The translations under genes and the position numbers were made by a program. The notes under the pieces were generated by a model. The model was given only the letters and a program-made list of their open reading frames with translations. It did no database searches and was not told the DNA's origin. From Syntrophales bacterium (GTDB lineage Bacteria; Desulfobacterota; Syntrophia; Syntrophales; UBA2210), in the NCBI GenBank assembly GCA_963666365.2, contig CAXXNF010000002.1, positions 928,001 through 992,000 of the forward strand: a stretch of 64,000 nt of DNA, in the 5' to 3' direction. Shown in pieces: positions 1 through 20,246 of the stretch (within the stretch, counting starts at the first letter, position 1; the number at the start of each line of letters is the position of its first letter).

Positions 1-205
1 CCATGGCAGAATAATAGAACAGGATTGCCGAAATTGCAACGCAGTGTGCCACGGTGTTTTTTTACACATTTTTTCTTGATTTTTCTTCTTGAATAGCAGA
101 TTAATACTAATTAACATCAAGGTCATAAAAAATCTCAAATAATGGAATATTCATACAGTTTTTCTCGTTCGAGCTTATCGAACCTGTGATTGAAAGGAGT
201 TGCCC

Positions 206-1756
206 GTGAAACGAGGAATATCGATAGCACTGACAGGCCTTTTCGTTTTCTCCACACTGATTTTTTTCCTCCCCCCCCTGTATTGTCAGGAACCCTCGGA
301 GATCATCAAAAAGGGAATTGCAGAATATAAGCAGGAAAATTATGAAGAGTCCGTGGCAATCCTTGAAAGAGCACGAGCCGAAGAGCCGAATTCCTCGCTC
401 GCCGCATTCTTTCTCGGCATGGCCTACAAACAGGTGATGGATTTCGAGAAGGCCCTCGTCCATTTCAACGACGCCGTGACGCTGACGCCGCGGATCAAGG
501 AGGCGCTCCCCGAACTGATAAGCATTCTCTACAAACAGGACAACATAGAAGAGGCAAAAAAATGGATTGCCGTGGCGGAAAAAGACTCGATAATGCCGCC
601 ACAGATCGCCTTTCTTAAGGGTCTTGTGCTGCAGAAAGAAAATAAATTCACCGACTCGGTCGTCGAATTCGAGAAGGCGACGGATCTCGATCCATCGCTG
701 AAGCAGGCCGCGGAATTCCAGATTGCCCTCTCTTATGTCAAGGCAAGGAAACTCTCGTACGCGAAGGAGCGTTTTCAGGCTGCCGTTATCGCCAACCCTG
801 ACAGCGACCTCGCCGCGTACGCGAGACGATACCAGGATCTCGTGGAAGAGCGCATATTTGTGGAGCGGCCCCTTCGTTTCACCCTCGGTCTCTTCGGGCA
901 GTACGATTCCAACGTGGTGCTGAGTCCGGACGATTCCGTATTTTCGGCCGGAATCACCAATGAATACAGTACGGTTCTCATGCCTTCATTCCGCGTCGAT
1001 TATGTGCCCATTCTTGAGGGATCGAAGCTTTTCAGCGCCCAGTATTCATTTGTATCCAACTACCACGAACACAATTCCACAACCCATGATATGACGGCAA
1101 ACACCATCAGCCTCACCCCCGGCTACAGCTTCGGACGTTCGGCGCTCAATTTTAACCTGAGCTATAGCCATTTTCTGCTGCACGGATCCCGATATATGGA
1201 AAACCTGTCCTACGGGCCCCTCTACCGCTACCTGCTCAATGATACAAACATTTTTGAAGTGTTCGCGGGGTACGGCATAAAAAACTATTTCCAGGACATC
1301 ACTCCGCCCGATTTCGAAAACGACCGCGACTGCGAAGGAATCAATGCCTACCTGAGCTGGGTGTGGCTGTTCAGCCGCAACGCCTTCTTTAACTTAAAAT
1401 ATGAATTTATCGATGAAAACGCCGACGGGCTCCGTTACGAAAACAACGGCCACCGGTTGAGCGCAAACGCTATCATTCCCCTGTTGACCAATCTCAAGCT
1501 GCAGCTCAGCGCATCCTATTACCGGCAGCAGTACCGATACCGACTCAATTACCCCGAGTTCATTGCGGGCGCCCTTGTCAACGTACCCAAGGAACGGCGC
1601 GACAAGAACTTATCGAGCACCATCGGCCTTACCTGGGAATTAAACAGGAATATCAACGTGATTGTGCAGTATTCGAGAACACGGAACGACTCGAACGACG
1701 AAACTTCGGAATATACCCGTCATCTCTACACCGCGGGGGTTGAATTCAAGTTCTAG
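206..1756 (+). CDS. TPR-repeat + C-terminal outer-membrane beta-barrel protein (Slam/DUF560-like exporter)
   Basis: RBS GAAAGGAG then GTG at 206 (ORF track starts at TTG 200). N-terminal signal peptide, ~180 aa of TPR-like helices (e.g. FFLGMAYKQVMDFEKALVHFNDAVTLTP), then amphipathic beta-strands starting at GQYDSNV and ending in a BAM-type signal YTAGVEFKF. Confidence 0.8.
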   Translation: MKRGISIALTGLFVFSTLIFFLPPLYCQEPSEIIKKGIAEYKQENYEESVAILERARAEEPNSSLAAFFLGMAYKQVMDFEKALVHFNDAVTLTPRIKEALPELISILYKQDNIEEAKKWIAVAEKDSIMPPQIAFLKGLVLQKENKFTDSVVEFEKATDLDPSLKQAAEFQIALSYVKARKLSYAKERFQAAVIANPDSDLAAYARRYQDLVEERIFVERPLRFTLGLFGQYDSNVVLSPDDSVFSAGITNEYSTVLMPSFRVDYVPILEGSKLFSAQYSFVSNYHEHNSTTHDMTANTISLTPGYSFGRSALNFNLSYSHFLLHGSRYMENLSYGPLYRYLLNDTNIFEVFAGYGIKNYFQDITPPDFENDRDCEGINAYLSWVWLFSRNAFFNLKYEFIDENADGLRYENNGHRLSANAIIPLLTNLKLQLSASYYRQQYRYRLNYPEFIAGALVNVPKERRDKNLSSTIGLTWELNRNINVIVQYSRTRNDSNDETSEYTRHLYTAGVEFKF

Positions 1757-1919
1757 TGTGAATGATTTCACATGGAACACACCAATTTAATCGATGATTA
1801 GCCGCCATTGCCGGTTGAAGGCGCCGGCGTATTTTGCTAAACTGATATCATCATTTCATAAACGAACGACGCCGTGGAGGCGCCTGACAGATAACCGCCA
1901 ATCGTAAAGGACTCAAAGG

Positions 1920-4900
1920 GTGACCGCAATGAAGATGAAAAAATATATAGTATTTTTTATTCTGATAGGCCTGATTTTCCTGCTGCCGCTTTCTGTACTC
2001 GGTGCGAGCATAGGGAAGTTCACCTTTACCCAGGGAACGGTGGATCTCACACGGCCGGGAGAAGCGGCGCAGCCGGCCACGGTCGGCGACGAGATCGCCA
2101 TTGGCGACTTTATCCGCACCAAGAGTAATTCAAAGGCGGAAATTACCTTTGTAGACGGGAGCATCACCCGTCTGGCGCCCCGTTCGCGTCTTAAAATTAC
2201 GGAATACTTCATCAGCGATGAAGGGCGGAAAGGCACCCTTGACCTTGTCAGAGGAAAGGTACAGAGCGTCATACAAAAGACTGAAATAACCGGAACGGAC
2301 AGCCGCTTTGAAGTGCACACCCCTACCGCCGTCTGCGGCGTCAGGGGCACCATTTTCTTCACCTATTATCAGGACGGCGTATCCGGCGGCGCAACTCAGG
2401 ACGGCGTGGTCTATGTATACAGCAAGAACAGGCCGAGCGAAGTAAGGACTATGTCCTCAGGCGAGGCGATGATCGTTACGAGCCCTGACCAGCCTCCAGT
2501 GGTGCGACCGGCCACGGATCCTGAAATTCAGCAACATACAGACGATACCAGTCCCGGTGACGACGGAGAGGAAGGCGATGATGACAGTGGCGACGATGAC
2601 GGTGGAGGCGGCACGCAGTCTGGCGGAACCCAGGGTGATGAAGGTGGCGGCGGAGCCGGCGGCGGTGATGGTGGTGGAGGAGAGGGAGCCGACAGTGTTG
2701 ATGAGGAATTAATAACCACCACGTTACTGACCGGCACGGAAGATACCTCCGGCGACAGCGGCCAAGGCCCCGGCAGTTCACTGCCCGGGCCGGACACTAC
2801 CGGCCAAAATCTTGTGGACAATACCCCTGAACCGATAATTGAGCCCGAAACCCCCTCAAACGCCTTTTGCAGTACGGGTGAATACGGGTATGGAACGGTC
2901 ACCCTGGCGATCACTCCCCCTGAAGGAACGCAGCAATACGGCGCCATTGATATAAGCGGCATAGTCTATGATTCTGTCTGGATGGGTTCGATTGCCGCCG
3001 CCTCTGAAGAGGGCAGCAAATTGGGCGGCTACTTTGCGGGTGTAGCCGGTTCATGGCGCGGCTATCTGAGTACGCTCTACTGTGAGACGAACGACCGTAC
3101 CGAGGGAGGCCACATACTAGGCTATCTCTCTACCGATCCCTCGGGGAGCTTCGAAGCCGAAACCGGCGCTTTTGCGGGAAGCGGCACTGTCCTCATGATT
3201 CCCATGGCGGACACCACCTTTAATCCTACTGAATTTACTGCACTTCTCAATGACGAGATCTATCAAGCGGATCTCCCCTTCTCGCGCATCCCCTTCCATG
3301 CATTTACCCTGGGAGTGATCGATTTCGACGGTTCCTTCAGTGGGTCCGTGACTTCCGAAGGAGACTATAAAGGAATCGACGCCGGCGATATTCTCCTCGG
3401 CGTATGGGCCGCGAAAACTAAAGACGGATATTACTCGAATGTGAACCAGCATGATCTCGGAACAATTTATTTCGGTTATACTCCTGACCTGGATGAAGAT
3501 GAAGACTGCTACATGATAGGCGGCATCGACGGGAATCAATCTCTCGGCGACGATGGCGACGGCCATATTGACCTTTACGGCTACGCCACCTATATCGACC
3601 ATGAGCACCTCGGTGTGCTCGACTTTCGTCATCTCGGCGTCTACGAGGGCAACCCCGGCGCCTACAACAGCATTACCAGCGGCACGGCAACCCTTTACCC
3701 CCTCGCCTTTTCGGGGCACATCGGCGGAACAGTGAGACCGGTGGGCGCAGTCGAACAGCAACCTTCCAGCCTTTACAGAAACGAGGGGGGCATGGCCTTG
3801 ATCTATGCCCACGAGGAAGGCATCGTCGGCGGCCGTACAAGCCCCTGGGGCGCCGCCGACTCCACTCTCAAGGATGTGCAGCCGGGATTCTTCCGTGCAC
3901 TGGGACAATACTATGATACGGAAGAGGCGCCACTGGTCAGTGCAACCCCTTCGCACTTTCTCTGGAACACCGCTTCATACCTGTCATACCTGAACCGAAA
4001 CGAAGGCGGCACGCTTGACAGAGAAGAGCGTTCCCTGTCCTTTGTGACAGGGCTCTGGAAAGACGACGGAACCATCGTCGGGGAAAGCATCGGTTTTTAC
4101 GAAAGCGACGACGGGACCCTTGGCATTATCGGCGGTGATCTTACCGGCTATTATTACACGGATCTGGGCATGTGGATGATCGAAGGCACAGTAACTCCCG
4201 ATGATACGATTATCGGCACATTTACCGACAGCACGCACCTCTCAATGGACGAAATCACCGGCTCTCTCTACTCCGATTTCAGCGACGGCAGCTATGTTGA
4301 GGGTGCAGCTCTCGGCAGCGCATTCAGACTCACCGACAACGAGGGAACACCCGCCCTCTTCGGCGTATTCGATATTTTGTTCGGCGGGTATTCCGAGTTC
4401 TTTTCAACCGGCGGCGGCAACACCTTTTACTGCGCCTCGGAGAATTATGCGGACATGGCGGGTCGCGAGATACTGTTCGGCTCTTTTGCCTACAATCCCT
4501 ACACATATCCCGTATCATACCCCCTGAATGGCCTGGACATGGGCGGCGGCACTTATATGATGGGGTCACTGATCATCGACAGCTGGAACAACGACGGCAC
4601 CATTTACGGAACCCTCACGAACGGTGAGTATTTCTATCTTTCCCTTGACTCCTTCGGTAGCTTTGAGGGCTCTTTCTACGGCCTCTATGATGAGCTGGAA
4701 GCCGGTTACGGCACCTGGATCGGCGTAAGCGCAGGCGCCTTTGTTGGTGAACCTCTCGCATACAGTGGATTATGGGGAAATTACCTGTTCGATGGATTCG
4801 ATGCGGGCTGTCTTTTTACCGTCGATTCCATCGATGAGTATGGCGACCTCCTTACCATGGGCGAAGAGTACGGCCTCTTCGGCCTTGCACCCCGGGGCGA

Positions 4901-7900
4901 CGACTACCTGTTCGTTGCCATGGGTTCCTACGACGCATGGGATGAAGGCATCGGTCCCTATCTGTGGAACACGCCCATAATGAGCGCAAGCTTCGATCCC
5001 TATGAGTATACCTTTTTCGATAATGAAGGCATCGCCGGGTATACCACGGGCATATGGAACAACGGCGCCCTCGAGGGCTATGCCCTGGCCCTGCTTTCAC
5101 GGTACGACGGAGAAACGGGCCTTGTCGATCTCGGCGTCGTCGCGGGACCGCTCACCGGCACATACAATGCCGACATTGCCATGTGGATGGCGCAGGGTAC
5201 GGCAACCACCAACATCCGTGAGACCGGCGTCGATCCCTTGGTGTTTGAACTGTACGGTGACTGGGGGTATTTCGATGAATCCTGTCTGGCGGGAGATTTC
5301 GAAGGAAATGGCTCTATCGAGGGATACAGCGACTGGGGAAGTACATACTTTGCAGGATATTACGATGCGGAAGAGGATCTCGACCTTTCCTATCCCTGGG
5401 GCATCTACAGCGTTACCATGGCGGGAACGTTTGAAAACCCGAATTCCGGATCTTCATGGTCGGCTGTCATCGGCGGGTTCGGTGAATTCGGCTACGACGA
5501 CCGCTACTATAATTTCAACGATGAATACGGCTACCTCGAAGGCTACTGGATCGCCTCCGTCTCCGGCATATGGAATGAGGACGGTACGATACTGGGCTAT
5601 CTAGGCATTGAAGAGGAAGAGAACGGCATTACCTTTTTCAGTACGAGTGTAATAAGCATCCCCGAGCCGGGTGTAAGCGACGAAGGCTTCGGACTGTTTA
5701 TCACGCTCCAGGGAATCGGCTCTATCGGCGGTCCCTTCTACGGTCTTTATGACAACAACGATTATTGGATCGGCGCGAGCATAGGCACCTTTGAATTGGA
5801 GGCCGCCTTTGACATGAGCGGCTACTGGGAGCATTGGCTTCTTGCTGACGACGGGGGATCTCTTGTCGAGGTGGGCGAGGGATGGGGCATTATCGGCCTT
5901 GTCGAAAACGAAGGCATCTACGAATATTTCGGCATGGGGGAATTCTTCGCCGAAACGGGGTACGACTCCTATCTCTGGGATACTTTCACCTATGGGATCC
6001 CCGGAACGCTCTCCACCAGCGCAACTCCCTATCACATGTTCCTGGGATATGCCGGCGGCATATGGAACAACGGAACATGGAACGGATATGCATCATTTCT
6101 CTATTCCGAAGCCGATCAGGATACGGGGTTAGTCAATCTGGGATATCTTTCGGGATCGATAGACGGCGTCTACTATCCCGGCATTGAAATGTGGATAATG
6201 GGCGGCACGCTTACCCCGGAAATCAAAGTGAGCGGCCTTGATCTTTCCGAAGGCGGCTATTTCTGGGAATACGGCAGTTCTCTTACGGCGGCCCTGTCGG
6301 GAAGTTTCGGTGAATTGCAAGAAGGCGCACTCTCATCGGAGTTCAACGAGGAGGACATGCAGGGAAACACGTTCTTCTTTGTAGTAGAAACTGCCGATCA
6401 GCAAGGGCCACTTCCCTGGGGCATCTACTCGCTGAGTCTGGGGTATGACAGCGCCTATTCGCAACCCGAAGGCACAGATGCGTTCAGTGCTGTAATCGGC
6501 GGAGAAGGCGCCTTCAGCGCCTCCGATACGGGAAGCCCCGAATACGGCTACTGGATGGCTTCCGTCTCCGGCATATGGAACGAAGACGGCACAATCAGCG
6601 GCATGCTGGGCGAAACGGAGGAGCATGAAAACTCCTTCGGCTTCTATCTGAACGCCACGCACATGGGAACTCTCGGCGGACCTTTCTACGGTCTTTACAG
6701 TGAAACCGAGGCGGGCGTCGGTACCTGGGTTGCCGGAAGCGTTGGCGCCTTCGACGGGGCGCCGCTGGCGCTCGGCGGTGAAATAACCGGGAATGCTCTT
6801 TATTACGACGGTACCGCTCTTGTCACCGGAAACAGTGTCGAAGGTCTTCTCGGCGCCACGACGAACCCTCTGTTCGGTGAGGAACTTACGGAAGCAGTAA
6901 TCATGGGCGCACTGAATGTGAATGACCCCGCTGCTTCAGGCCTTTACGAGCAGGAGGTGACCGGCTGGTCCGCCGACGGAGACGCCTTTACCGGATTTAT
7001 GGCGAGCATCCGTACCAAAGAGCCGTTCTATGGGGGTGTCGGCTTTCTCCTCGCCTTATATATCGATTCAGAAGGCAATGCAGGAATTCTTGAAGGGGAG
7101 TTTGAAGAAGCCGGCCGTCTAAACAATAGTGTATGGCTCGACTACGGAATCCTCTCGGCCATTCCACAGGGCACGACGTCAATAACCCCGGATATGCTCT
7201 ACGATTCTCTCATAACAAGCACATTCGAGGGATGCGGGGGATACAGTCAGGAAGAGGGGAACGGCCTCTGGACCGAATCCGTTTCGGGAACACTGCTCGG
7301 ATTAATGGATCAGGATTGGGGAATTTTCAGGATATCTCTCGGCGGCAGCTATGAAGGCGTACTCCCCTACTCTGTCATGGCGTTCTGGGGCGCCTCCGCC
7401 ACGCTGGACGAATTGCCCGGGTATGTGTTCGGGATTTCAGAAACAATGCTGCAGGAAGAAGCCTTTCCGCTTGTAGCCTTCTCATATGGCTTTGCGCTGA
7501 ACGACTCTTATCTGTATATGCTTATGGGCGAACTGATCGGCACTTATCAGCCCGACGGCGCCGCCGGAGGGGAACTCGAAACAGGCACGTGGCAGGCTTC
7601 CGGCGTCGGACGGTATGAAAGGGCTGCATTGTCCGCAAGCGGCGCCTGGAACGCCGAACAGACACCCGACGTATTCTATAATTCAGAAGGCTATATGGAG
7701 TCGGCCGGCGTAATGACGGGAATTATCGGCATTGCTGATGAAGAAAGCGGGTTTTTCTCATCTCTCGTCGCCATGGGAAGTTATGAGGAATACGCCCCTG
7801 CGCAACTCTATCTGTGGAATTCACCCCTCGAAGTCGAGTGGAAAGACGGATCGGGCGGATTTTACGGTTACGGTATCGGCATCTCGGGCAGTTGGTATAA

Positions 7901-10900
7901 TGATTACAGTGCAACCGCAGGCATGACCGTTTCCCTCGGATACATGGTAACTCTCTTTGATCAATACGATGCCGACGGCATGACATTCGATCTGGGAATC
8001 ATGTCGGGGGAAATGGAAGGATTCTTCGTAAACGATTCGGGACTCTGGTTTATGATGGGAGAGTTTGACGATGCCCTGATAATGGATACGGTCCCCGATT
8101 CACTGTCGGTATCGCTCGAAAGCGGTACGCTCGACGGCGACTTTTACGGCGATTTTATAGGCTCCGGCTCCATTACGGGCAACGGTGCAATCGGAACCAC
8201 GGACTTCTTTGTAATCTCCGAAGGAGAATTGTCCTATTCGCTCCCCTGGGGTATTTATAGCTTCATCCTTGCTTCGGGAAACTACTATGAAAATCCGCTT
8301 TACGAAACCGACTTTTCCGCAATTGTCGGCGGAATGGGCGTTTTCGGCTATGAGTTCGACGGTACCGACGGATATGACGAAACCGGATACTGGATAGCCA
8401 CAGTAGAGGGCTATTGTGATGAAGACGGTTCAATTTTCGGCGATCTCGGTATGTTCGAAGATGATGGCACTACCTACAGCGCAGGCTATTATATAACCGA
8501 TACGCACATGGGAACAATTCAGGGGCTTCTCCTTGGTATCTACGAAGCATCCGAAGACGAAGGATCCGGCACCTGGATCGGCGAAAGCCTGGGAACCTTC
8601 ACGGGTGAAGAACTCGCCTATGGCGGCGCCTGGGGCGGTTATTATAATGGTGGTTACGATGCATTGAGTGCCGGCAGTCTCTTTTCCCTCGGTTCCGTGA
8701 TTACCGATGAATATGACGACACCTATATCGAAGGTCCGATGGGAGAAGAATTCGGCATGTTCGGTCTTGCCCCGAGAGGAAACGACTATGCCTTTCTCGC
8801 CATCGGCGAATATGAATATTATGACGAAAGCGGCAGCGGACCTTATATCTGGAACACGCCCATCGCAAGTCCCGGCTTTGACCCCTACGATTTCCTCTTC
8901 AACTATGACGGTATTGCAGGATATACCTCCGGCATTTGGAAAGATGGCTCGATGGGTGGTTATGCCGTTGCACTTTTATCGCGATATGACGACGAAACAG
9001 GCCTCGTCGATCTCGGCTTTGTCACGGGACCGCTTGCAGGCATCTACAGTCCCGAGATCGCCATGTGGATGGCGGAAGGAATGCTGATCACCGACATAAG
9101 GGAAGTCGGTATCGACCCGGAAGAGTATGAGTTATATGGTGACTGGGGCAACTTCGATGAAATAACCTTTACTGGAAGCTTTCAGGGCAGCGGGTATCTC
9201 GAGGGATACAGTGATGGAGGCCACACCTACTTCTTCGGTGCGATCGACCAGGCAACGGAAATCGACATTTCCTATCCCTGGGGACTCTACACCTTCACTA
9301 TTGCGGGCACGCATGATAATCCCGAACTGGGTTCCTCGTGGTCGGGGCGCGTGGGCGGGAACGGCGAGTTCGGATACGACAGTCGCTTCACCTCATCTTA
9401 TTACGAAGGGTGCTGGTTAGCCACTGTTTCAGGCACATGGAACGATGACGGCACGATCACCGGCGTTGTGGGCGATACGGCGGGTGAGGATGACGACAGG
9501 TTCGGCATTTTCATGAGCGTCAAAGGAATGGGGAAAATAGGCGGGCCCTTCTGCGGACTCTATGACGATACCCTCGGTACCTGGATCGGCACGAGCATCG
9601 GCACCTTTAAACAGGAAATCGCCTTCGACTGCGCCGCCTATGTGGGATTTTACGGAAGCGAGCTTTTCTATGACGACGGCGGGTATCTCGCCTCGGCGGG
9701 ATGGCTGGAAGGTTTGTCCGGTCTTAAATCGACGGATACGGGCTTTGACTTCCACGCCATGGGAATGTATGACGATTACGATGCCTATGGTATCTACGAG
9801 GGCCCCTATCTTTGGTATGCCGATGTTTCGCCGGGTGAATACTACTACAACTATTATGCTCTCAGCCCCATGGTCGCAGCGGGGGAAGAACACGTCAGCG
9901 GTTATGTGGGCCGCACCATCGGCATCGCGAAAGAGGGCGCCATGGGCGGATACCTTGCCGCGTTGTTCGGCCGGTTTGATTCCGAGGGCACATCGTACCA
10001 GGCAGGTCTCTTATCAGGATCTGTCGAAGGCACGCTCTTCGATGATATCGGCATGTGGCTGGCAGCAGGCACGATGGACTATACACTCCTTGTTGAAAGC
10101 GCTCCCTACTCCGAGAACCTGGACGTATACCCCGACTGGGGCGATCTGGACTACATCGCGCTTTCGGGAAGCTTTGATGGCAATGCGGGGATGATCAGCG
10201 GCGCCAACGGCTACGGCAGCACCAGCTTTATCAGCGTCTACAACATTGAAACCGACTATGAATCATCATACCCCTGGGGCATCTATGAGTTCATTATCGG
10301 TACCGGAAATGCCTATGAAAACCCGAACGCATCGACGGTCTTCTCTGCGACCATCGGCGGATACGGCGAGTTCGGATACAGCACCGATGCCGACGGTATG
10401 CACATCGGCTACTGGCTTGCCACGTTACAGGGCGACTGGAACAGTGACGGAACCATTATAGGCACCCTCGGCAAGGTGGCTGAGGATGACGGCACATTTG
10501 GCGTTTACCTTACCACCGGCCAGCGCGGCGTTATCGGTGGTCCCTTCTATGGGCTTTACACCGAGGCAGAAGAAGGCGGGTCCGGCACCTGGGTAGGCGA
10601 AAGTATAGGCACGTACCAAGGTTCAGCGCTGCACCATGTCATTCAGATTGAACCCACAGACGGATATAGAAACGCCACCTTGATCACCCAGGTCTGGGAT
10701 AGTCAGTACGAATATTTGTACTACGAGGAAGACGGCTCCCTAACGGCACTTTTCGGCGGAAGCGATATAATCAGGGATGCGACGGAAGCTTCACCCGCCG
10801 ACGTCCTGATGCTGGGCGAATACTATCCGGAAAGCACTCAACCGCACATGTGGTACTATGGCACCAGACCATGCGAACCTGCAAGTATCTTCACCACAGA

Positions 10901-13900
10901 TGGCGGGGCATACAGGACTTTCTTTGTGGGCGCTGAAGCGGGCAATGCGATGGATGCGCTCCTGCTCGGTCTTTACATAGACCCGGACGGGAATCCGGGC
11001 TATCTCAAAGGCACAATGAGCGGCAATGCCTATAGTGAAATAGATATGTTCTTAATGGATGGCAGCCTGTACCCGACTATGGTGACATCCTCGGCAACCT
11101 ACAACCCCGAAGACATTCAATACACCTGCAACGATGCTGTTGCAATAGTACGATCCATGCCCCTATCGCCTTTTGCCTTCGATGGAACCTACGGTTTGGA
11201 AGGTTCAATGGTGAACTATGAAGGCTGTACCGGCGCCCAGCGCCCCTCCAGTTCCTGGTGGTTTGAGGATTATGAATCGAACACGTCCGAGCACTGGGGC
11301 ATATACTTCCGGAGCGTGGCAGGAACCTATCAATCGCCATTAGAGGGAGAATCGTGGACGGCAACGATGGGTGGAATGGGATTCTTCGGCTCATTTGAAA
11401 ATAGTGATTGCGGGGAGCTTACACCTGCCCGTGGATACTGGCTGCTGTTCCTCGGTGGCGAGGCGCAGGATAGCATGCTGACCGGCGCCGTATGTGAAGG
11501 ATACTATGTCACGACGAACACGATGGGAATCTTTTCTGAAGAAGCGGGCACAGGCATGACGGGAGATCTGCTTGGAACCTATGATTCGACTAACAATACA
11601 TGGCAGGCAGGAATCCTTGGCACATGGGCCGGAACACCCACAGACTTCGGAGGGTATTGGCACCATAGCACACTCTATAATGATAATGTCTACCTGGAAT
11701 GGGCCAGTGTAAACAGCTGTAGCAAGGAGAATGAGGGTACCTTTGGATTAATAGAGAATACGGAAGGTGGATATGACTTTTTCGCCATGGGACGATATTA
11801 CGAGCCGCTATCACAGGGAGCAGGCTTTGTCGGACCGTACCTCTGGAACGGGTCATTGTCGTATGATGACCGTCGAATGGGCAATCGCAACTTTGAAGCC
11901 TTTGTCGGCGGCATTTGGTCGAATGGAGCAACCACCGTGGCGGCGATGGAAGGCGTAATTACGGCCCTTTACTTTACCGAAGAACTTATCGGTGAGAATT
12001 TCGTTCCCGCAGCAGGCCTTATGACGGGTGACCTGTCCGGCGTCCTGCACGAAATGGTGTATTGGACCCATGACGACATGTCCGGCATGTGGCAGGTTGA
12101 AAGCGATGAAGAGGGACTTGCCGTCATTGAAAGGCCTGTGCCGGAAGACTTCACGGCGGAAAACGCCTATGTCGACGAAGACGGCATCTCTGCCCACCTT
12201 GCGGGCGGGTTCGGCGGCGCCGGCGGAATGAGCAGTGAATATGAGGGGGGCAGTACACGGTTCATCAGTTATGATGTCTATGAATCCGAAACCTTTATGG
12301 CCACGAAGAGCCTTCCCTTCGGCATCTACAATCTGAAGCCGGCTGACGGTTATGGAAGCAGCTACTTCACCGGCAAGCCTTCGGGGACTTCTGTTGAATG
12401 GAACGCAACGATAGGCGGCGCCGGTTACTTCGGATACAGTTATACCTCTGACTACGGTTCACACTATCATCCCGGCTTCTGGCTGGCCGATATTACAGGT
12501 ACATGGGATGCACGCGCTGCGGAAGAGGGACAGGGGACCATCAGCGGCACATTGGAGGGCGCCTATATGACCTATACGCATGTAGGAACCATAGGAGGTC
12601 CCTTTTACGGACTTTATACCGAATCAGGCGAGGCCGGAGACGGCGCTTGGGTCGGAGAAAGCCAGGGCGTTTTCGATGCCTCATCGACGCTCACCTTTGC
12701 CAATGAGCTGAATGCGGATATCATCAGTTGCTGCGTGGGACCCGAAGGGACTATGGCCGGTATTCTGGGCGGACCGGATTCGCTCTGGACCGGTTCAGAC
12801 ATTCCGGTTTATTCAATGGGAGCAGTCACCAGCGGCACTGAATGCATCTGGTATGATCACTATTTCATGAGTGCCAACTACCTGACCGGCGAAAGCGATA
12901 CCTACGACGGCGGCGCCTTTTACGGAACCGTCAGCGGTATAAAGCAAGACGAGTTTCTGTCGGGCAGCCTCTTTGCCCTTTACATAGACAATGCCGGCGC
13001 CGCCGGATATCTCGCGGGAGACCTCTCGGGTACGGTCTACGAGACACTCGGCCTTTATGAAATGGACGGCACTGTGAACCGGATCGTCATGAACGAGACT
13101 CTTGACGGCGTAAGCCAGACATCGTTTCCTGGTGCCGTCACCCGTATTGACGGCATCGACTTCATGGGATCAGGCGTGTTCAGCGCAGGAGGAGACATCG
13201 TTGAACTTACATCCGAATATGACGAGGGATGCGGCTTCAGCGCCTTCATCACCGGTCAGGATTGGGGCATGTGGGCCTCCACGCTCTACGGAGCATACAC
13301 CGACAACAGTGAGCTGACAAATGATACCTGGTCGCTTGAGCTGGTGGAAGCCGCTCAGGAATCACCGACGGGAATGAACCACTGGATGGAAATATCAGGG
13401 ACGAAGTTCTCCAACGGTGAAATGGCGGGAAACACGGCAGGCGCCTGGGTGAACTGGGATCAGGCCATGACGGGAGTCTCCGGGGGCACGCTCAAGGGGA
13501 CCTTCGATGCCGCCAACTTTGCCTGGGAGGCGGTAGCGAAAGGTGCTTCCATCGAAACCCAGAAGTTCCTCGACATGGTGGCCAACAGCCCTGAAAAACT
13601 GGCACAGTTGAATATTCCCTGTGTTCAGATCGGCACCACCGATCTTACAGGATCGAACGGAGACCTGACGGTGAATATGAACAGTGTGAACTTCTTCGCC
13701 TACTCAAACGGAACATCGCCTTCAATATGGGCCACTGATTCCGTGAGCGGCGCCTACAATCAGGAAATACCAAGCTACACGGGTACATCGCTCACCCTCA
13801 GCGGCAATGGATTCAGCAGCGTTGATTTCGGGGTGAAGAAATGGGATAATGCCCAGTGGGGCGCCGCAGTGAACGGCGCCGGCAACGTACCGGGAACCGA

Positions 13901-14000
13901 CTTTAATGTGAACATTACAGGGGCTGCGGCGGGAACGTTCAGTGCCGGCACTCTCAGCGGCACCGGCGCCGGCGTTGCCTCCCCGGGCGGCAGCAGGTGA
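1920..14000 (+). CDS. Giant secreted FecR-domain protein with ~11 tandem beta-rich repeats (putative surface protein/adhesin)
   Basis: Uninterrupted 4026-codon ORF; the start may be ATG 1929 or 1935. Sec signal MKKYIVFFILIGLIFLLPLSVLGA; FecR-like domain (GDFIRTKSNSKAEITFVDGS...FEVHTPTAVCGVRGT); G/D-rich linker; repeated PWGIY / GYW.A...G.W..DG.I.G / GGPFYGLY / GTW.G.S.G.F motifs. Confidence 0.85.
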   Translation: MTAMKMKKYIVFFILIGLIFLLPLSVLGASIGKFTFTQGTVDLTRPGEAAQPATVGDEIAIGDFIRTKSNSKAEITFVDGSITRLAPRSRLKITEYFISDEGRKGTLDLVRGKVQSVIQKTEITGTDSRFEVHTPTAVCGVRGTIFFTYYQDGVSGGATQDGVVYVYSKNRPSEVRTMSSGEAMIVTSPDQPPVVRPATDPEIQQHTDDTSPGDDGEEGDDDSGDDDGGGGTQSGGTQGDEGGGGAGGGDGGGGEGADSVDEELITTTLLTGTEDTSGDSGQGPGSSLPGPDTTGQNLVDNTPEPIIEPETPSNAFCSTGEYGYGTVTLAITPPEGTQQYGAIDISGIVYDSVWMGSIAAASEEGSKLGGYFAGVAGSWRGYLSTLYCETNDRTEGGHILGYLSTDPSGSFEAETGAFAGSGTVLMIPMADTTFNPTEFTALLNDEIYQADLPFSRIPFHAFTLGVIDFDGSFSGSVTSEGDYKGIDAGDILLGVWAAKTKDGYYSNVNQHDLGTIYFGYTPDLDEDEDCYMIGGIDGNQSLGDDGDGHIDLYGYATYIDHEHLGVLDFRHLGVYEGNPGAYNSITSGTATLYPLAFSGHIGGTVRPVGAVEQQPSSLYRNEGGMALIYAHEEGIVGGRTSPWGAADSTLKDVQPGFFRALGQYYDTEEAPLVSATPSHFLWNTASYLSYLNRNEGGTLDREERSLSFVTGLWKDDGTIVGESIGFYESDDGTLGIIGGDLTGYYYTDLGMWMIEGTVTPDDTIIGTFTDSTHLSMDEITGSLYSDFSDGSYVEGAALGSAFRLTDNEGTPALFGVFDILFGGYSEFFSTGGGNTFYCASENYADMAGREILFGSFAYNPYTYPVSYPLNGLDMGGGTYMMGSLIIDSWNNDGTIYGTLTNGEYFYLSLDSFGSFEGSFYGLYDELEAGYGTWIGVSAGAFVGEPLAYSGLWGNYLFDGFDAGCLFTVDSIDEYGDLLTMGEEYGLFGLAPRGDDYLFVAMGSYDAWDEGIGPYLWNTPIMSASFDPYEYTFFDNEGIAGYTTGIWNNGALEGYALALLSRYDGETGLVDLGVVAGPLTGTYNADIAMWMAQGTATTNIRETGVDPLVFELYGDWGYFDESCLAGDFEGNGSIEGYSDWGSTYFAGYYDAEEDLDLSYPWGIYSVTMAGTFENPNSGSSWSAVIGGFGEFGYDDRYYNFNDEYGYLEGYWIASVSGIWNEDGTILGYLGIEEEENGITFFSTSVISIPEPGVSDEGFGLFITLQGIGSIGGPFYGLYDNNDYWIGASIGTFELEAAFDMSGYWEHWLLADDGGSLVEVGEGWGIIGLVENEGIYEYFGMGEFFAETGYDSYLWDTFTYGIPGTLSTSATPYHMFLGYAGGIWNNGTWNGYASFLYSEADQDTGLVNLGYLSGSIDGVYYPGIEMWIMGGTLTPEIKVSGLDLSEGGYFWEYGSSLTAALSGSFGELQEGALSSEFNEEDMQGNTFFFVVETADQQGPLPWGIYSLSLGYDSAYSQPEGTDAFSAVIGGEGAFSASDTGSPEYGYWMASVSGIWNEDGTISGMLGETEEHENSFGFYLNATHMGTLGGPFYGLYSETEAGVGTWVAGSVGAFDGAPLALGGEITGNALYYDGTALVTGNSVEGLLGATTNPLFGEELTEAVIMGALNVNDPAASGLYEQEVTGWSADGDAFTGFMASIRTKEPFYGGVGFLLALYIDSEGNAGILEGEFEEAGRLNNSVWLDYGILSAIPQGTTSITPDMLYDSLITSTFEGCGGYSQEEGNGLWTESVSGTLLGLMDQDWGIFRISLGGSYEGVLPYSVMAFWGASATLDELPGYVFGISETMLQEEAFPLVAFSYGFALNDSYLYMLMGELIGTYQPDGAAGGELETGTWQASGVGRYERAALSASGAWNAEQTPDVFYNSEGYMESAGVMTGIIGIADEESGFFSSLVAMGSYEEYAPAQLYLWNSPLEVEWKDGSGGFYGYGIGISGSWYNDYSATAGMTVSLGYMVTLFDQYDADGMTFDLGIMSGEMEGFFVNDSGLWFMMGEFDDALIMDTVPDSLSVSLESGTLDGDFYGDFIGSGSITGNGAIGTTDFFVISEGELSYSLPWGIYSFILASGNYYENPLYETDFSAIVGGMGVFGYEFDGTDGYDETGYWIATVEGYCDEDGSIFGDLGMFEDDGTTYSAGYYITDTHMGTIQGLLLGIYEASEDEGSGTWIGESLGTFTGEELAYGGAWGGYYNGGYDALSAGSLFSLGSVITDEYDDTYIEGPMGEEFGMFGLAPRGNDYAFLAIGEYEYYDESGSGPYIWNTPIASPGFDPYDFLFNYDGIAGYTSGIWKDGSMGGYAVALLSRYDDETGLVDLGFVTGPLAGIYSPEIAMWMAEGMLITDIREVGIDPEEYELYGDWGNFDEITFTGSFQGSGYLEGYSDGGHTYFFGAIDQATEIDISYPWGLYTFTIAGTHDNPELGSSWSGRVGGNGEFGYDSRFTSSYYEGCWLATVSGTWNDDGTITGVVGDTAGEDDDRFGIFMSVKGMGKIGGPFCGLYDDTLGTWIGTSIGTFKQEIAFDCAAYVGFYGSELFYDDGGYLASAGWLEGLSGLKSTDTGFDFHAMGMYDDYDAYGIYEGPYLWYADVSPGEYYYNYYALSPMVAAGEEHVSGYVGRTIGIAKEGAMGGYLAALFGRFDSEGTSYQAGLLSGSVEGTLFDDIGMWLAAGTMDYTLLVESAPYSENLDVYPDWGDLDYIALSGSFDGNAGMISGANGYGSTSFISVYNIETDYESSYPWGIYEFIIGTGNAYENPNASTVFSATIGGYGEFGYSTDADGMHIGYWLATLQGDWNSDGTIIGTLGKVAEDDGTFGVYLTTGQRGVIGGPFYGLYTEAEEGGSGTWVGESIGTYQGSALHHVIQIEPTDGYRNATLITQVWDSQYEYLYYEEDGSLTALFGGSDIIRDATEASPADVLMLGEYYPESTQPHMWYYGTRPCEPASIFTTDGGAYRTFFVGAEAGNAMDALLLGLYIDPDGNPGYLKGTMSGNAYSEIDMFLMDGSLYPTMVTSSATYNPEDIQYTCNDAVAIVRSMPLSPFAFDGTYGLEGSMVNYEGCTGAQRPSSSWWFEDYESNTSEHWGIYFRSVAGTYQSPLEGESWTATMGGMGFFGSFENSDCGELTPARGYWLLFLGGEAQDSMLTGAVCEGYYVTTNTMGIFSEEAGTGMTGDLLGTYDSTNNTWQAGILGTWAGTPTDFGGYWHHSTLYNDNVYLEWASVNSCSKENEGTFGLIENTEGGYDFFAMGRYYEPLSQGAGFVGPYLWNGSLSYDDRRMGNRNFEAFVGGIWSNGATTVAAMEGVITALYFTEELIGENFVPAAGLMTGDLSGVLHEMVYWTHDDMSGMWQVESDEEGLAVIERPVPEDFTAENAYVDEDGISAHLAGGFGGAGGMSSEYEGGSTRFISYDVYESETFMATKSLPFGIYNLKPADGYGSSYFTGKPSGTSVEWNATIGGAGYFGYSYTSDYGSHYHPGFWLADITGTWDARAAEEGQGTISGTLEGAYMTYTHVGTIGGPFYGLYTESGEAGDGAWVGESQGVFDASSTLTFANELNADIISCCVGPEGTMAGILGGPDSLWTGSDIPVYSMGAVTSGTECIWYDHYFMSANYLTGESDTYDGGAFYGTVSGIKQDEFLSGSLFALYIDNAGAAGYLAGDLSGTVYETLGLYEMDGTVNRIVMNETLDGVSQTSFPGAVTRIDGIDFMGSGVFSAGGDIVELTSEYDEGCGFSAFITGQDWGMWASTLYGAYTDNSELTNDTWSLELVEAAQESPTGMNHWMEISGTKFSNGEMAGNTAGAWVNWDQAMTGVSGGTLKGTFDAANFAWEAVAKGASIETQKFLDMVANSPEKLAQLNIPCVQIGTTDLTGSNGDLTVNMNSVNFFAYSNGTSPSIWATDSVSGAYNQEIPSYTGTSLTLSGNGFSSVDFGVKKWDNAQWGAAVNGAGNVPGTDFNVNITGAAAGTFSAGTLSGTGAGVASPGGSR
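2870..13550 (+). repeat. Intragenic tandem array of ~11 diverged ~0.87-1.05 kb units
   Basis: The unit-terminal motif (G.W.G.S.G.F/Y or variants) ends near 3690, 4741, 5792, 6752, 7616, 8600, 9608, 10616, 11627, 12674 and 13547. Confidence 0.75.
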
Positions 14001-14024
14001 TATATCTAAGCCTTAGTACTACAG

Positions 14025-14063
14025 GAGGGGCACTGTAACTGAATTACCGTGCCCCTCTTTTTT
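14025..14063 (+). terminator. Intrinsic terminator after the giant gene
   Basis: GAGGGGCAC-N15-GTGCCCCTC hairpin followed by a T6 run. Confidence 0.7.
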
Positions 14064-14087
14064 AAAAATTGAAAGGAGTTATGTTGT

Positions 14088-14609
14088 ATGAAACGTTCCT
14101 GTGTGGTTGCTTTTTCCTTTATGCTTATCTTTTCTTTTCTCATGGTATCGACTGCCTGTGACGCAGCAACGGTAAAAATCGGCGTTATCGATACGCAGAA
14201 GATTCTGCGCGATTCGCAGGCAGCCAAGGAAGCGCAGAAGGTTTTTCGAAGGGATCTTGAAGCGAAACGGGCCGTATTGAAATCCAAGGAACAGGAAGTG
14301 ATGGTCCTGGATCAGGAAATAAAAAAAGAGGGGCCCAAAATGGAAGCGACGGTGCTGAAAAACAAGCGTGAAAAGCTTGCCGATGAAATGAAAGAACTGA
14401 AACGCCTCAGGACCGATCTAAGCGACGACCTCAAGAAGAAAGATGCCGAACTGACCCAGAAGATCCTGAAGGAAATCGATGCAATCGTCAAGGATTACAG
14501 CAAGAAGAATAAATATACGATCATACTCGACAGGCGCATGGTCATAGACTTCGATGAAACTGTGGAAATCACGAATGATGTCATTAAAATTTACGACAAA
14601 AAGAAATAA
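14088..14609 (+). CDS. skp: OmpH/Skp periplasmic outer-membrane-protein chaperone
   Basis: Signal peptide, KIGVIDTQKIL motif, long basic coiled coil, C-terminal YTIILD...EITNDVIK; RBS AAGGAG. Confidence 0.88.
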   Translation: MKRSCVVAFSFMLIFSFLMVSTACDAATVKIGVIDTQKILRDSQAAKEAQKVFRRDLEAKRAVLKSKEQEVMVLDQEIKKEGPKMEATVLKNKREKLADEMKELKRLRTDLSDDLKKKDAELTQKILKEIDAIVKDYSKKNKYTIILDRRMVIDFDETVEITNDVIKIYDKKK

Positions 14610-17785: not shown

Positions 17786-18496
17786 TTAAACCTCTAAATA
17801 ATTTCTCCTTACATCTTCCGCCGCCATCAACGCCTTGTCATCGCCTTCGAACATAATCTGTCCCTTACTCATGACATAAAACCGATCGGCGATCTTGACG
17901 GCTGCTTTAAAATTTTGCTCTACCATAAGCACGGTGACTCCCGACTCGCGGACCCGCGACAGCATCTCCAGCACGTCCTTTACTATGAGAGGCGCGAGCC
18001 CTTCCGTCGGTTCATCAACGAGCACCAATTCCGGGTTTCCCATCAACGTGCGCACCACCGTCAGCATCTGCTGTTCACCGCCCGAAAGATGTTTCCCTTT
18101 ATTGTTCTGCCGTTCCTTCAGACGAGGAAACATTTCATAGACCCGTTCCGGCGTCCAGCCCGCACCGCTCTTCCCTCTTCTTCCTTCCTGAATGCCGATA
18201 AGGAGGTTCTCATGAACGGTAAGGCTCCCGAATATGCGCCGTTCCTCCGGCACAATCCCCACGCCAATGCGGGCAATTTCATAAGGCGCCTTTCCTGCCA
18301 GTTCCTGTCCGTTAAAAAGAATGCTTCCGTCTTGGGGCGTGACAAGCCCCATGATGCTTTTCAGGGTGGTCGTTTTACCCACGCCGTTACGGCCCAGTAG
18401 ACAGACCATTTCACCCTTTTTCAGTTCCATTGACACCCCGTGGAGTATATGGCTCTTTCCATAATAACTGTGAATATCCCTTACTTCTAGCAGCAT
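17786..18496 (-). CDS. livF: LIV-type ABC ATP-binding protein (LivF-like)
   Basis: GRNGVGKT, LSGGEQQML, DEPTEGLAP, VEQN. Confidence 0.92.
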   Translation of the reverse strand: MLLEVRDIHSYYGKSHILHGVSMELKKGEMVCLLGRNGVGKTTTLKSIMGLVTPQDGSILFNGQELAGKAPYEIARIGVGIVPEERRIFGSLTVHENLLIGIQEGRRGKSGAGWTPERVYEMFPRLKERQNNKGKHLSGGEQQMLTVVRTLMGNPELVLVDEPTEGLAPLIVKDVLEMLSRVRESGVTVLMVEQNFKAAVKIADRFYVMSKGQIMFEGDDKALMAAEDVRRNYLEV

Positions 18497-19251
18497 TATT
18501 CTTCCTCTCCCAGATAGGCGTCTTTCACCCGTTGATCGTTTCGTATTTCTTCCGGCGCCCCCGAAGCCAGAATGGCGCCGTAATGCAAAACGGATATCCT
18601 GTCGGCCAACGAAAACACCACATCCATGTCGTGTTCTATGATGACAAGCGTTTTTCCCCTGGTAACCCGGTCTATCATGCGGATCGCCTCGGCCGTTTCT
18701 TCCCGGGTCATCCCCGCCGTGGGCTCGTCAAGCAGAATCAGTTCCGGCTCCGTGGAAAGAGTAATACCGATCTCAAGGGCGCGTTGACGACCGTAGGACA
18801 GGGCGCTGACCGGTTCATGCATTACATCGTCAAGGCCTACCAGTTTCAGTATCTGTTCAGTTTTTTCAGCAACCACCCTGTTGTGGTCCGGTCTTTTAAA
18901 AAAACTGTATCGCAATCCCTGGCGACATCGGACACCGGCTCTCACATTTTCCAGGACTGTCAGTTCCTGAAAAAGATTGGTAATCTGGAAGGATCGAGCC
19001 ATTCCTCTATGGTTCAGCACATGGGGCTGTTTTCTTGAAACGTCCCGTCCCTTGAAAATAATTGCTCCTGTTGAAGGTTTATATTTGCCGGAAATAATAT
19101 TGAAGAGTGTGGTCTTGCCGGCGCCGTTGGGACCGATCACGGCGTGACGCTCCTCATTTCGCACGGAAAAGGTCACGCCCGTAAGCACTTCGAGTCCCGA
19201 GAAATCCTTGTATATATCTTTAATTTCAAGAATGCCCTGTGAGGGGTCCAT
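18496..19251 (-). CDS. livG: LIV-type ABC ATP-binding protein (LivG-like)
   Basis: GPNGAGKTT, RSFQIT, LSYGRQR, DEPTAG, EHDM, AYLG. Confidence 0.92.
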   Translation of the reverse strand: MDPSQGILEIKDIYKDFSGLEVLTGVTFSVRNEERHAVIGPNGAGKTTLFNIISGKYKPSTGAIIFKGRDVSRKQPHVLNHRGMARSFQITNLFQELTVLENVRAGVRCRQGLRYSFFKRPDHNRVVAEKTEQILKLVGLDDVMHEPVSALSYGRQRALEIGITLSTEPELILLDEPTAGMTREETAEAIRMIDRVTRGKTLVIIEHDMDVVFSLADRISVLHYGAILASGAPEEIRNDQRVKDAYLGEEE

Positions 19252-20246
19252 CAGTCATCTCCCTCCATTTCAAGTTTCCCTGTGGAATTTGCAAAACCAA
19301 ATCGCTCTTTGATCGAAACAATGAGTCCCGACAAGCCTCCCGGCACATACAACACCATTACCACAAAGATAATCCCCATGATAATCGGCCACCGATCGGT
19401 AATATCGCTTAAAAAATCCTGGAGATAGGTAAAGACAAGCGCACCCAGAATAGGACCGCCGAAACTTCCCGTGCCTCCGATAAACGTCATAAGCAGTACC
19501 GTCGTTGTCATGTCGATACTGATTGCCGAAATTGAAGTGAACTGAAAAAAAAGCGCATAAAAGGCACCCGCACAACCGGCCAGGGCACCCGTGAAGGTAA
19601 AGAGAATCAAGCGGCTGATATTCGTATTATATCCGAGAAATTTCATCCTTTCCTCGTTTTCTCTCATGAGAAGAATCGTCTTCCCCATTGCCGTAGTGGT
19701 AAAATACCAGCAGAAAAGAATCACCAGGCCGACAACGATCAACGTGAAAAAATAGAACACCTTCACATTGGTCATGTTCAGGGTGGCAACGCCTAAGTTG
19801 ATATCGGGGCGCCATACGCTGAGTCCGTCATCGCCGCCGGTCATGGAGTACCACTTTGTCGCGACGGCAAAGAACAGGGCGTTAAAGGCCAGTGTTAAAA
19901 GGGCAAAGTAGGACCCCTTGTGCCGGAGCAGAAGGCTGCCCACGAGGAACCCGACAATCACCGTCACCAGCGTAGCCGCCAGAATGGCCGCGAGAAGCGG
20001 AATGCCCTGAAAATGATTCAGAATCACCGCTACGGCGTAGGCGCCGGTGCCGAAAAACATGGCATGACCGAAGGATAACAACCCGGCGTAACCGAGGAGC
20101 AGGTTATAGCTGACGGCAAAAAGTGAAAAAATAACTACTTCCGTCATCAGTGCTATCTGATAACGTGGGAACAGGAGTGGAACAATTATCAGAAGCACGA
20201 CAAGCAGAACAATTCCCAGATATATGCGTATGTTGAGTCCTTTCAT
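19251..20246 (-). CDS. livM: LIV-type ABC permease (LivM-like)
   Basis: GYAGLLSFGHA, YFALLTLAF, TGGDDG motifs; multiple TM segments. Confidence 0.9.
   Translation of the reverse strand: MKGLNIRIYLGIVLLVVLLIIVPLLFPRYQIALMTEVVIFSLFAVSYNLLLGYAGLLSFGHAMFFGTGAYAVAVILNHFQGIPLLAAILAATLVTVIVGFLVGSLLLRHKGSYFALLTLAFNALFFAVATKWYSMTGGDDGLSVWRPDINLGVATLNMTNVKVFYFFTLIVVGLVILFCWYFTTTAMGKTILLMRENEERMKFLGYNTNISRLILFTFTGALAGCAGAFYALFFQFTSISAISIDMTTTVLLMTFIGGTGSFGGPILGALVFTYLQDFLSDITDRWPIIMGIIFVVMVLYVPGGLSGLIVSIKERFGFANSTGKLEMEGDD

Follow-up and report, generated by a model that had tools for sequence, protein, structure and literature searches.

We report on three adjacent genes in the DNA of a Syntrophales bacterium (assembly GCA_963666365.2, contig CAXXNF010000002.1, positions 928,001 to 992,000), the whole stretch of 64,000 nucleotides being called the window below. 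They encode a protein composed of tetratricopeptide repeats (TPR) and an outer-membrane β-barrel, a giant FecR-headed protein built from repeated β-modules, to which we refer as the cargo, and a periplasmic chaperone of the Skp/OmpH family. We propose that the three genes form a dedicated outer-membrane export-and-display module, a reading to which we give an even chance. Two parts of it carry different weight: surface exposure of the cargo in dependence on the barrel is somewhat probable, and a tethering of the cargo by its head acting as a plug is a tentative suggestion falling a little short of an even chance. The features are as follows, in positions of the window.

200..1756, plus strand: gene 1, TPR and outer-membrane β-barrel protein, 518 aa when read from TTG at 200, the likely start being GTG at 206; signal peptide at aa 1-29.
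299..862, plus strand: TPR helices of gene 1, aa 34-221.
872..1750, plus strand: barrel of gene 1, aa 225-517.
1809..1829, plus strand: terminator-like hairpin in the 163-nt gap between genes 1 and 2, on weak evidence a possible attenuator.
1920..14000, plus strand: gene 2, giant cargo (P0002), 4,026 aa, with FecR as the sole Pfam match.
1920..2003, plus strand: cargo signal peptide, aa 1-28 (...LSVLG/ASIGKF, slash at the cleavage site), type I, without lipobox.
2004..2519, plus strand: cargo head, aa 29-200, FecR-type (PF04773, 49 bits), its N-terminal ~70 residues matching RIN of MpIBP.
2520..2849, plus strand: acidic Gly-rich low-complexity linker, ~aa 201-310, from sequence composition.
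2937..13250, plus strand: cargo body of ~320-aa all-β modules, from windowed self-BLAST and an iterated hidden Markov model (HMM).
13401..13997, plus strand: conserved module at the C-terminus, aa 3828-4026, a homologue of the body module's first half.
14088..14609, plus strand: gene 3, Skp/OmpH-family periplasmic chaperone (P0003), 173 aa, PF03938 at 91.4 bits.

An earlier note, made from the sequence alone, had described three co-oriented genes for a TPR-barrel protein, a giant cargo and Skp, the cargo being Sec-exported, non-lipidated and devoid of an autotransporter barrel, RTX repeats and a two-partner secretion (TPS) domain. All of this is borne out. The trio lies on the plus strand at the positions listed, gene 3 exceeds the PF03938 cut-off of 32.4 bits by far and starts with a hydrophobic leader, and the cargo has no Pfam match at E ≤ 0.1 other than FecR PF04773 (residues 64-162, 49 bits), RTX, autotransporter and TPS families all being unmatched at this threshold. 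All 69 cargo N-termini available, i.e. those of 68 loci and of the window, are type I signal peptides with AxA/APVGKF-like ends and no genuine lipobox; a lipobox flagged in one of them (L001) was rejected as an artefact of the regular expression inside the n-region.

The three-gene set is far beyond chance, and other genomes contain homologues of each of the three genes arranged in this order. We found 343 relatives of the barrel protein at E ≤ 0.001 among 7,996 scored candidates (~45-98% identity, ~505 aa), which come from metagenome-assembled genomes (MAGs) of Syntrophales and Desulfobacterales. One genome per GTDB species was then scanned with three peptide patterns and the best 80 of 155 confirmed loci were examined, 67 of which are by record title delta-proteobacterial or Desulfobacterota-type, five Nitrospirota-type, five Omnitrophota and three unclassified; all 80 are labelled as MAGs, single-amplified genomes or otherwise uncultured or symbiont-derived assemblies. 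With a barrel at E < 1e-60 and a FecR-headed open reading frame (ORF) at E < 1e-10 on the same strand and at most 3 kb downstream as the definition of a pair, such an ORF follows 68 of the 82 barrel genes in these loci, with a gap below 400 nt in 54 of the 68, showing the pair being kept across phyla, in support of the earlier note. Of the 14 unpaired barrel genes, eight have at most 1,302 nt of contig remaining, five are located 5' of a large ORF whose head is divergent (L023, L024, L025, L034, L051) and one (L032) has a terminal-module ORF upstream instead. The genes upstream of the barrel are not conserved and vary by locus (45 neighbour proteins from 19 loci, the set to which all statements on neighbours below refer); as the window opens ~200 nt 5' of gene 1, the upstream context of this gene was judged from its relatives.

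Two Syntrophales genomes (L020, L021) each carry two divergently oriented paralogous pairs, located in L020 at 2826-4397 on the minus and 9872-11482 on the plus strand. Within a type, identity is 82-86% for the barrels and 87-88% for the heads, and across types it falls to ~53% and ~55%, respectively. Because barrel and head identities thus match by type, barrel and cargo are inherited as a unit, and we regard a functional partnership of the two as highly probable. Variants of the layout occur at single loci: one barrel gene is followed by two FecR-headed ORFs of 1,075 and 678 aa (L030), an IS200-like transposase (Y1_Tnp) lies between barrel and cargo genes (L002:11689-12231), and one locus (L026:11630-13667 and 18458-20005) has Skp and an SLT lytic transglycosylase between barrel and cargo genes and a TolC-like outer-membrane efflux protein (OEP) gene after the cargo gene.

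The part of the cargo evolving with the barrel is, as far as pairwise divergence points to it, the head. Divergence of barrel protein and head correlates with a Pearson r of 0.87 over 1,540 pairs, compared to 0.81 for the TPR half and the barrel half of one and the same protein (1,540 pairs), 0.39 for barrel protein and terminal module and 0.27 for head and terminal module (406 pairs each), all these values being inflated by shared phylogeny; the difference between head and terminal module, in turn, lies within one protein. The earlier note had looked to the cargo C-terminus, and in this point the evidence now favours the N-terminal head and not the C-terminus alone. Prediction of a complex of barrel protein and head gave ipSAE values of 0.54, 0.54 and 0.55 in three runs, which share at least 90% of their contacts with a partner pLDDT of at least 82, and 0.00 for the best of three controls. 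Of 157 solved complexes 116 attained the corresponding mark, as did two of 215 mismatched pairs, figures that are approximate for our own alignments, and 18 of the 157 solved complexes and both passing mismatches reached it at ipSAE ≤ 0.60. The predictions therefore give weak support to a barrel-head complex.

The head also suggests what such a coupling might serve. When the PDB sequences were searched with a profile built from 56 heads, the best match was 5ix9_A, whose positions 14-81 align with head positions 2-69 (E 5.4e-5, 25.9 bits); second is 4m0n, a putative anti-sigma factor, at E 0.14 (positions 99-168). The entry 5IX9 shows RIN, a domain at the N-terminus of the 1.5-MDa adhesin MpIBP; according to its authors this domain resides in the periplasm as a plug whose size prevents it from passing the outer-membrane pore (PMC5550230). 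The retention module of LapA, which was modelled on RIN, is described as being followed by a flexible poly-Gly segment running through the LapE pore (bioRxiv 10.1101/198937). The cargo shares with LapA and MpIBP the RIN-related β-sandwich head at the N-terminus, on the basis of this modest and partial match, and the order of head, flexible low-complexity spacer and long array of β-domains. A stretch of at least 40 aa poor in hydrophobic residues is present within ~250 aa after the head, mostly directly after it, in 46 of 60 homologues. The linker sequence is not conserved, a query with it matching nothing but itself, and its composition is free to vary, being acidic-Gly, poly-Pro, Lys/Glu-rich, Gly-Ser/Gly-Thr or poly-Thr. 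In contrast to LapA and MpIBP, which as type I secretion system (T1SS) substrates carry RTX repeats and a C-terminal signal, lack a Sec signal and use a TolC-like pore, the cargo has a Sec signal peptide (69/69), has no RTX match and is paired with a TPR protein with a 14-strand barrel; T1SS genes are not found among the neighbours except for the OEP gene in L026. These comparisons suggest a LapA/MpIBP-like tethering, an idea absent from the earlier note.

The putative pore partner was modelled with AlphaFold2 (AF2) from 30 homologues at a pLDDT of 91.4, resulting in 12 helices at residues 7-221 and 14 strands at residues 225-517, which is the fold of TPRs and a ~14-strand barrel that the earlier note had expected. 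Several TPR families match residues 37-200 in Pfam, and the protein ends with ...VEFKF, i.e. with a terminal Phe. The start at GTG 206 fits homologue P0004, which has 516 aa and is 98% identical. The possibility of the barrel protein being a lipoprotein via Cys 29 was considered and rejected: the residue preceding the cleavage site (-1) is Cys in 16, Ser in seven, Gly in six and Ala in one of 30 homologues, and because of this variation the site is assigned to signal peptidase I and not to a lipobox.

The mature cargo has ~3,998 aa and 427 kDa, a pI of 4.05, 15.9% Gly and 572 Asp and Glu compared to 98 Lys and Arg residues. Used as queries, its parts differ in reach: the head (aa 29-200) matches 77 ORFs in 72 loci, the last ~180 aa match 37 ORFs, where they form the extreme C-terminus in all complete ORFs but L055, in which they are internal, and the middle repeat matches eight loci only. 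The repeats were mapped by windowed self-BLAST and an iterated HMM, as undivided self-BLAST gave the identity match alone. The body comprises nine full ~320-aa copies at aa 556-3545 and partial copies at aa 340-504, 1574-1827 and 3547-3777, with self-comparison offsets of ~335 and ~1290 aa. About four modules were duplicated recently within the cargo, aa 890-1600 versus 2167-2890 (nt ~4587-6719 versus 8418-10589, ~50% identity), which indicates that the array is still expanding. Because the body-module HMM also matches aa 3828-4023 (model positions 8-174, E 1.5e-31), the C-terminal domain is by homology a copy of the body module.

The last 337 aa were modelled with AF2 from a 34-sequence alignment as an all-β meander of ~20 strands (pLDDT 90.2, pTM 0.89). 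Foldseek finds nothing above a template-modelling (TM) score of 0.22 for the terminal module in the PDB or BFVD, the ESM Atlas gives no usable match, and apart from two stray matches none of the 34 members falls into a Pfam family. A hidden autotransporter-like barrel was considered for this module and rejected for three reasons: its C-terminal sequence ...ASPGGSR has no aromatic residue at the end, Gly, Ala and Thr abound in the last strands, and the module recurs ~10 times in the body. With a profile of the terminal region we retrieved 702 representative clusters among 1.84 billion proteins, 511 of them at E ≤ 1e-30. In the best 150 of the 702, the proteins reach up to 6,991 aa and contain one to 19 matched stretches each, the strongest of which nearly always ends at the C-terminus. 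Among 11 longer module-carrying proteins, six have a precomputed PF04773 assignment, two of these listing further domains too, and five have none.

A Skp gene lies downstream of nine of the 33 complete cargo genes with room for it, and two tandem Skp genes are placed there in L047. Skp is reported as the holdase required for translocation of TbpB by Slam1 (PMC9090332). Other recurrent neighbours are regulatory. A VpsT-like LuxR regulator gene directly follows the barrel gene and precedes the cargo gene in 13 of the 80 loci (L004, L014, L031, L034, L039 and eight more; e.g. L004:11477-12769), and 11 of these 13 loci also have one or two PilZ genes ahead of the cargo gene. VpsT-like and PilZ domains bind cyclic di-GMP (c-di-GMP). 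From these genes we propose, for one sub-clade, control by c-di-GMP and a role in biofilm formation or adhesion, the c-di-GMP link being a further likeness to LapA and MpIBP. At one other locus (L011) a CRP-like regulator is located between barrel and cargo genes. A PMT_2-family glycosyltransferase is encoded directly 3' of the cargo in L014 (17425-19254, with TPR) and L039 (20960-21550), and this enzyme may glycosylate the cargo or the envelope.

From the linkage, the architectures, the predicted folds and the co-divergence of head and barrel we infer export, topology, threading direction and function of the cargo as follows. Sec would deliver the giant cargo to the periplasm, where the FecR/RIN-like head would fold and dock on the TPR-barrel protein, and where the Skp paralogue, if encoded, would hold the unfolded chain, in parallel to its role for Slam1 and TbpB. 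The linker and then the ~320-aa β-modules would move through the 14-strand barrel or alongside it before folding outside. Because the folded head would be too large to follow through the pore, the cargo would stay tethered with its low-complexity linker spanning the pore, as in LapA and MpIBP but in a Sec-dependent manner and with a Slam-like barrel. At the surface the acidic modular protein would probably serve as an adhesin or matrix fibre, and in one sub-clade its display would apparently be under c-di-GMP control.

Several observations weigh against this export-and-display model. One set concerns the family of the barrel, for which the earlier note had expected membership in DUF560/SlipAM. 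The window barrel has no match to PF04575 (SlipAM/DUF560) even at E ≤ 1; it reaches 18.2 bits on TPR_Slam PF24575 (cut-off 35.2) and 28.8 bits on BBP2_2, the latter over its last 54 residues only. Placing 56 barrel-only sequences in Pfam at E ≤ 0.01, we find BBP2_2 (51 of 56, best E 3.2e-11) and DUF2860 (22 of 56, best E 1.2e-10) matching more of them than SlipAM PF04575 (12 of 56, best E 1.8e-14), besides OMP_b-brl (16 of 56, best E 2e-06). The SlipAM matches themselves speak for the export-and-display model: those of P0010, P0073 and P0085 exceed the cut-off of 22 with 36.1, 32.1 and 35.1 bits and cover model positions 69-286 of 288, and one of these three homologues is 57% identical to the window barrel. 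Structurally, the best whole-chain match of the barrel model in Foldseek is BcsC (E 2.7e-12, TM-score over the query, TMq, of 0.41), and the further matches comprise the 14-strand OmpG at a TM-score over the target (TMt) of 0.61-0.62, which counts in favour of export and display, then PelBC, FadL and autotransporter barrels, with no entry named Slam among the best 50 matches listed. A sequence search of the PDB with the full barrel alignment returned TPR proteins only and is uninformative on the barrel. We conclude from these profile matches that the barrel belongs to a distinct family which shares the Slam architecture, would at best be remotely related to SlipAM and does not count as a SlipAM member in terms of Pfam. 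The other set of adverse observations concerns the mechanism: a Skp homologue, albeit recurrent, is present in the module at only 13 of the 80 loci, the long linker is missing in 14 of the 60 homologues, the 5IX9 match spans only ~68 residues, the divergence correlations contain a contribution of shared phylogeny, the barrel-head score falls into a band in which passes are more often wrong unless the prior is high, with no interface being reported, and the tether model leaves the export-competence of a 427-kDa chain without an energy source unexplained.

The alternative surviving best, although we consider it unlikely, is a classical mechanism like that of Slam and the type XI secretion system (T11SS), according to which the barrel recognises and translocates the cargo via its C-terminal β-module, the cargo being released or otherwise held at the surface and the head having another role, e.g. 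in ligand binding. The accounts of T11SS in PMC12282271 and PMC8406197 describe DUF560 outer-membrane proteins of Proteobacteria whose cargo carries a C-terminal eight-stranded barrel, and according to the former the cargo depends on Sec and may lack a lipid anchor. The window system resembles it in the periplasmic TPR domain combined with a 14-strand barrel, in the adjacency of cargo and barrel genes (68/82), in the Sec-dependent, unlipidated cargo and in Skp, which is here encoded in the module; the remote SlipAM signal in 12 of the 56 barrels, the Skp linkage and the terminal module being the best conserved part of the body and, with the one exception of L055, placed at the extreme C-terminus speak for a Slam-like mechanism. 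It differs, however, in several respects. Besides the missing PF04575 match of the window barrel and the family being nearer to BBP2_2 and DUF2860 by match count, the cargo reaches up to ~7,000 aa compared to tens of kDa, it has a FecR/RIN-like head and a spacer, and the hosts are Desulfobacterota-type, Nitrospirota and Omnitrophota MAGs and not Proteobacteria. The terminal module, for which the earlier note had looked to TbpB/HpuA barrels, has ~20 strands, is without a Pfam family and is unlike the eight-stranded barrel of TbpB (Foldseek probability 0.14, TM-score 0.10); moreover, its divergence is nearly uncoupled from that of the barrel (r 0.39), whereas the head diverges with the barrel (r 0.87). 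Of the earlier note as a whole, the architecture, the conservation of the pair, the link to Skp and the non-lipidated Sec cargo stand, and the PF04575 membership and the TbpB-like C-terminus are not supported. A Slam-like mechanism could also be compatible with tethering, the terminal module then being the export signal and the head the anchor.

A second alternative, which we rate as rather improbable, holds that the cargo is not exported at all: the head would dock from the periplasm, the body would form a scaffold in the periplasm or beneath the outer membrane and the barrel would be the membrane anchor. The coupling of head and barrel fits such a periplasmic complex equally well, FecR domains are periplasmic in anti-sigma regulators, and Pfam reveals none of the known kinds of export signal in the cargo. 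A protein of 427 kDa with a pI of 4.05, with up to 19 modules in the family, would be hard to fit into the periplasm, though, and the disordered spacer and the similarity to RIN fit a membrane-spanning tether. A surface location is also hinted at by proteins of Leptospira. LipL45, Lsa33 and Lsa19 share the FecR domain with the cargo and differ from it in being small and, by its model name, a lipoprotein in the case of LipL45; we know of no TPR-barrel partner of these proteins. The NCBIfam models of surface adhesin Lsa33 and lipoprotein LipL45 match the head with 59 and 53 bits, far below their cut-offs of 420 and 350, respectively, and the FecR-domain proteins of this genus are reported to be outer-membrane proteins that take part in interaction with the host (PMC13719327).

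According to a third alternative, which is still less probable, the barrel would be a porin for exopolysaccharide export similar to BcsC, PelB, PgaA or EpsL, and the FecR-headed protein would be an accessory matrix factor in the periplasm or at the surface. BcsC, PelB and PgaA likewise combine periplasmic TPRs and a C-terminal barrel in one polypeptide, and BcsC and PelBC are among the best Foldseek matches of the barrel model; the BBP2_2 matches, weak EpsL matches, the VpsT-like and PilZ regulators and the PMT_2 glycosyltransferase downstream in L014 and L039 point in the same direction. Yet the TM-scores of these whole-chain matches are low (0.39-0.41), the NCBIfam model of BcsC gives 13 bits on the window barrel against a cut-off of 858, and BBP2_2 covers only the last 54-55 residues of the window barrel and of two of the three homologues shown (~120-150 residues of the third). 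The barrels of BcsC, PelB and PgaA have 16 strands, in contrast to 14 in our model. No synthase or outer-membrane polysaccharide export (OPX) gene is present among the neighbours, and the obligate partner of the barrel is a protein, i.e. the strict pairing is with the FecR-headed gene and not with sugar genes. PgaA homologues assigned to PF04575, as noted by Grossman et al. (PMC8406197), would also suit a polysaccharide porin.

A trans-envelope signalling pair of the FecA/FecR type, with the barrel sensing a ligand and the FecR-domain protein transmitting it, accounts for the PF04773 match and the weak match to 4m0n (E 0.14) but is very improbable and by architecture largely refuted: FecR directly follows the cleaved signal peptide of the cargo, the 69 N-termini leaving no room for the cytoplasmic anti-sigma domain or transmembrane helix of FecR regulators, Pfam shows neither a plug nor a TonB-dependent or STN domain in the barrel, no extracytoplasmic function sigma factor or TonB-dependent receptor is found among the neighbours, and the size and repeats of the cargo would stay unexplained.

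Regarding the remainder of the window, the hairpin at 1809..1829 is not above chance, four terminator-like sites being found in 1-2100 compared to 2.4 ± 1.6 in shuffled sequences. The module is followed 3' by a gene for tRNA-His and then, on the opposite strand, by a short-chain dehydrogenase/reductase gene and a Liv-type ABC transporter, which are unrelated to it. The gene at 22184-24499 on the plus strand, 8 kb from the module and with no link to it shown, codes for a T2SSE-family ATPase carrying GAF and MshEN domains at its N-terminus, MshEN being a c-di-GMP-binding domain. Genes of envelope biogenesis with no obvious tie to the module encode a TPR-OmpA-domain protein (37648-38460, plus strand) and BamD (YfiO; 40084-40767, minus strand). 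At 52421-55114 on the plus strand, the reading frame of a molybdopterin oxidoreductase of the formate dehydrogenase type is interrupted by an in-frame TGA at 53483-53485 and appears as two ORFs; with selenocysteine at this codon the junction becomes ...HCARLUHSV..., suggesting a selenoprotein FdhA, and a formate/nitrite transporter gene lies 3' of it at 55616-56497.

As a summary, the pair of a TPR-barrel protein and a FecR-headed giant protein, of which we found no description in the literature searched, may represent an undescribed Sec-dependent secretion-and-retention system being widespread in anaerobic Desulfobacterota, Nitrospirota and Omnitrophota and composed of a Slam-related TPR-barrel, a FecR/RIN plug, a pore spacer and a dedicated Skp. 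It would then be a two-step, T1SS-independent counterpart of LapA and the first T11SS-like system outside Proteobacteria, with the ~320-aa β-module as a new fold, a wide claim which we put forward as a possibility while doubting it more than we credit it. Few routes are known by which very large proteins cross the outer membrane and stay on it, namely T1SS adhesins, the type V and type IX secretion systems and Slam, and the module would, if this holds true, add a route in which a Slam-like barrel and Skp are joined with a plug similar to that of LapA. It would also widen the reach of the Slam/DUF560 superfamily, make FecR-type domains possible periplasmic anchors and assign a role open to testing to a family of unannotated giant proteins with at least 702 representative clusters, for which short family members of ~600 aa (e.g. 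L042, 615 aa) are tractable test cases. The phyla carrying the module comprise syntrophs, sulfate reducers, Nitrospirota and Omnitrophota, the surface biology of which is almost unexplored and in which cell-cell attachment is important for syntrophy and biofilms.

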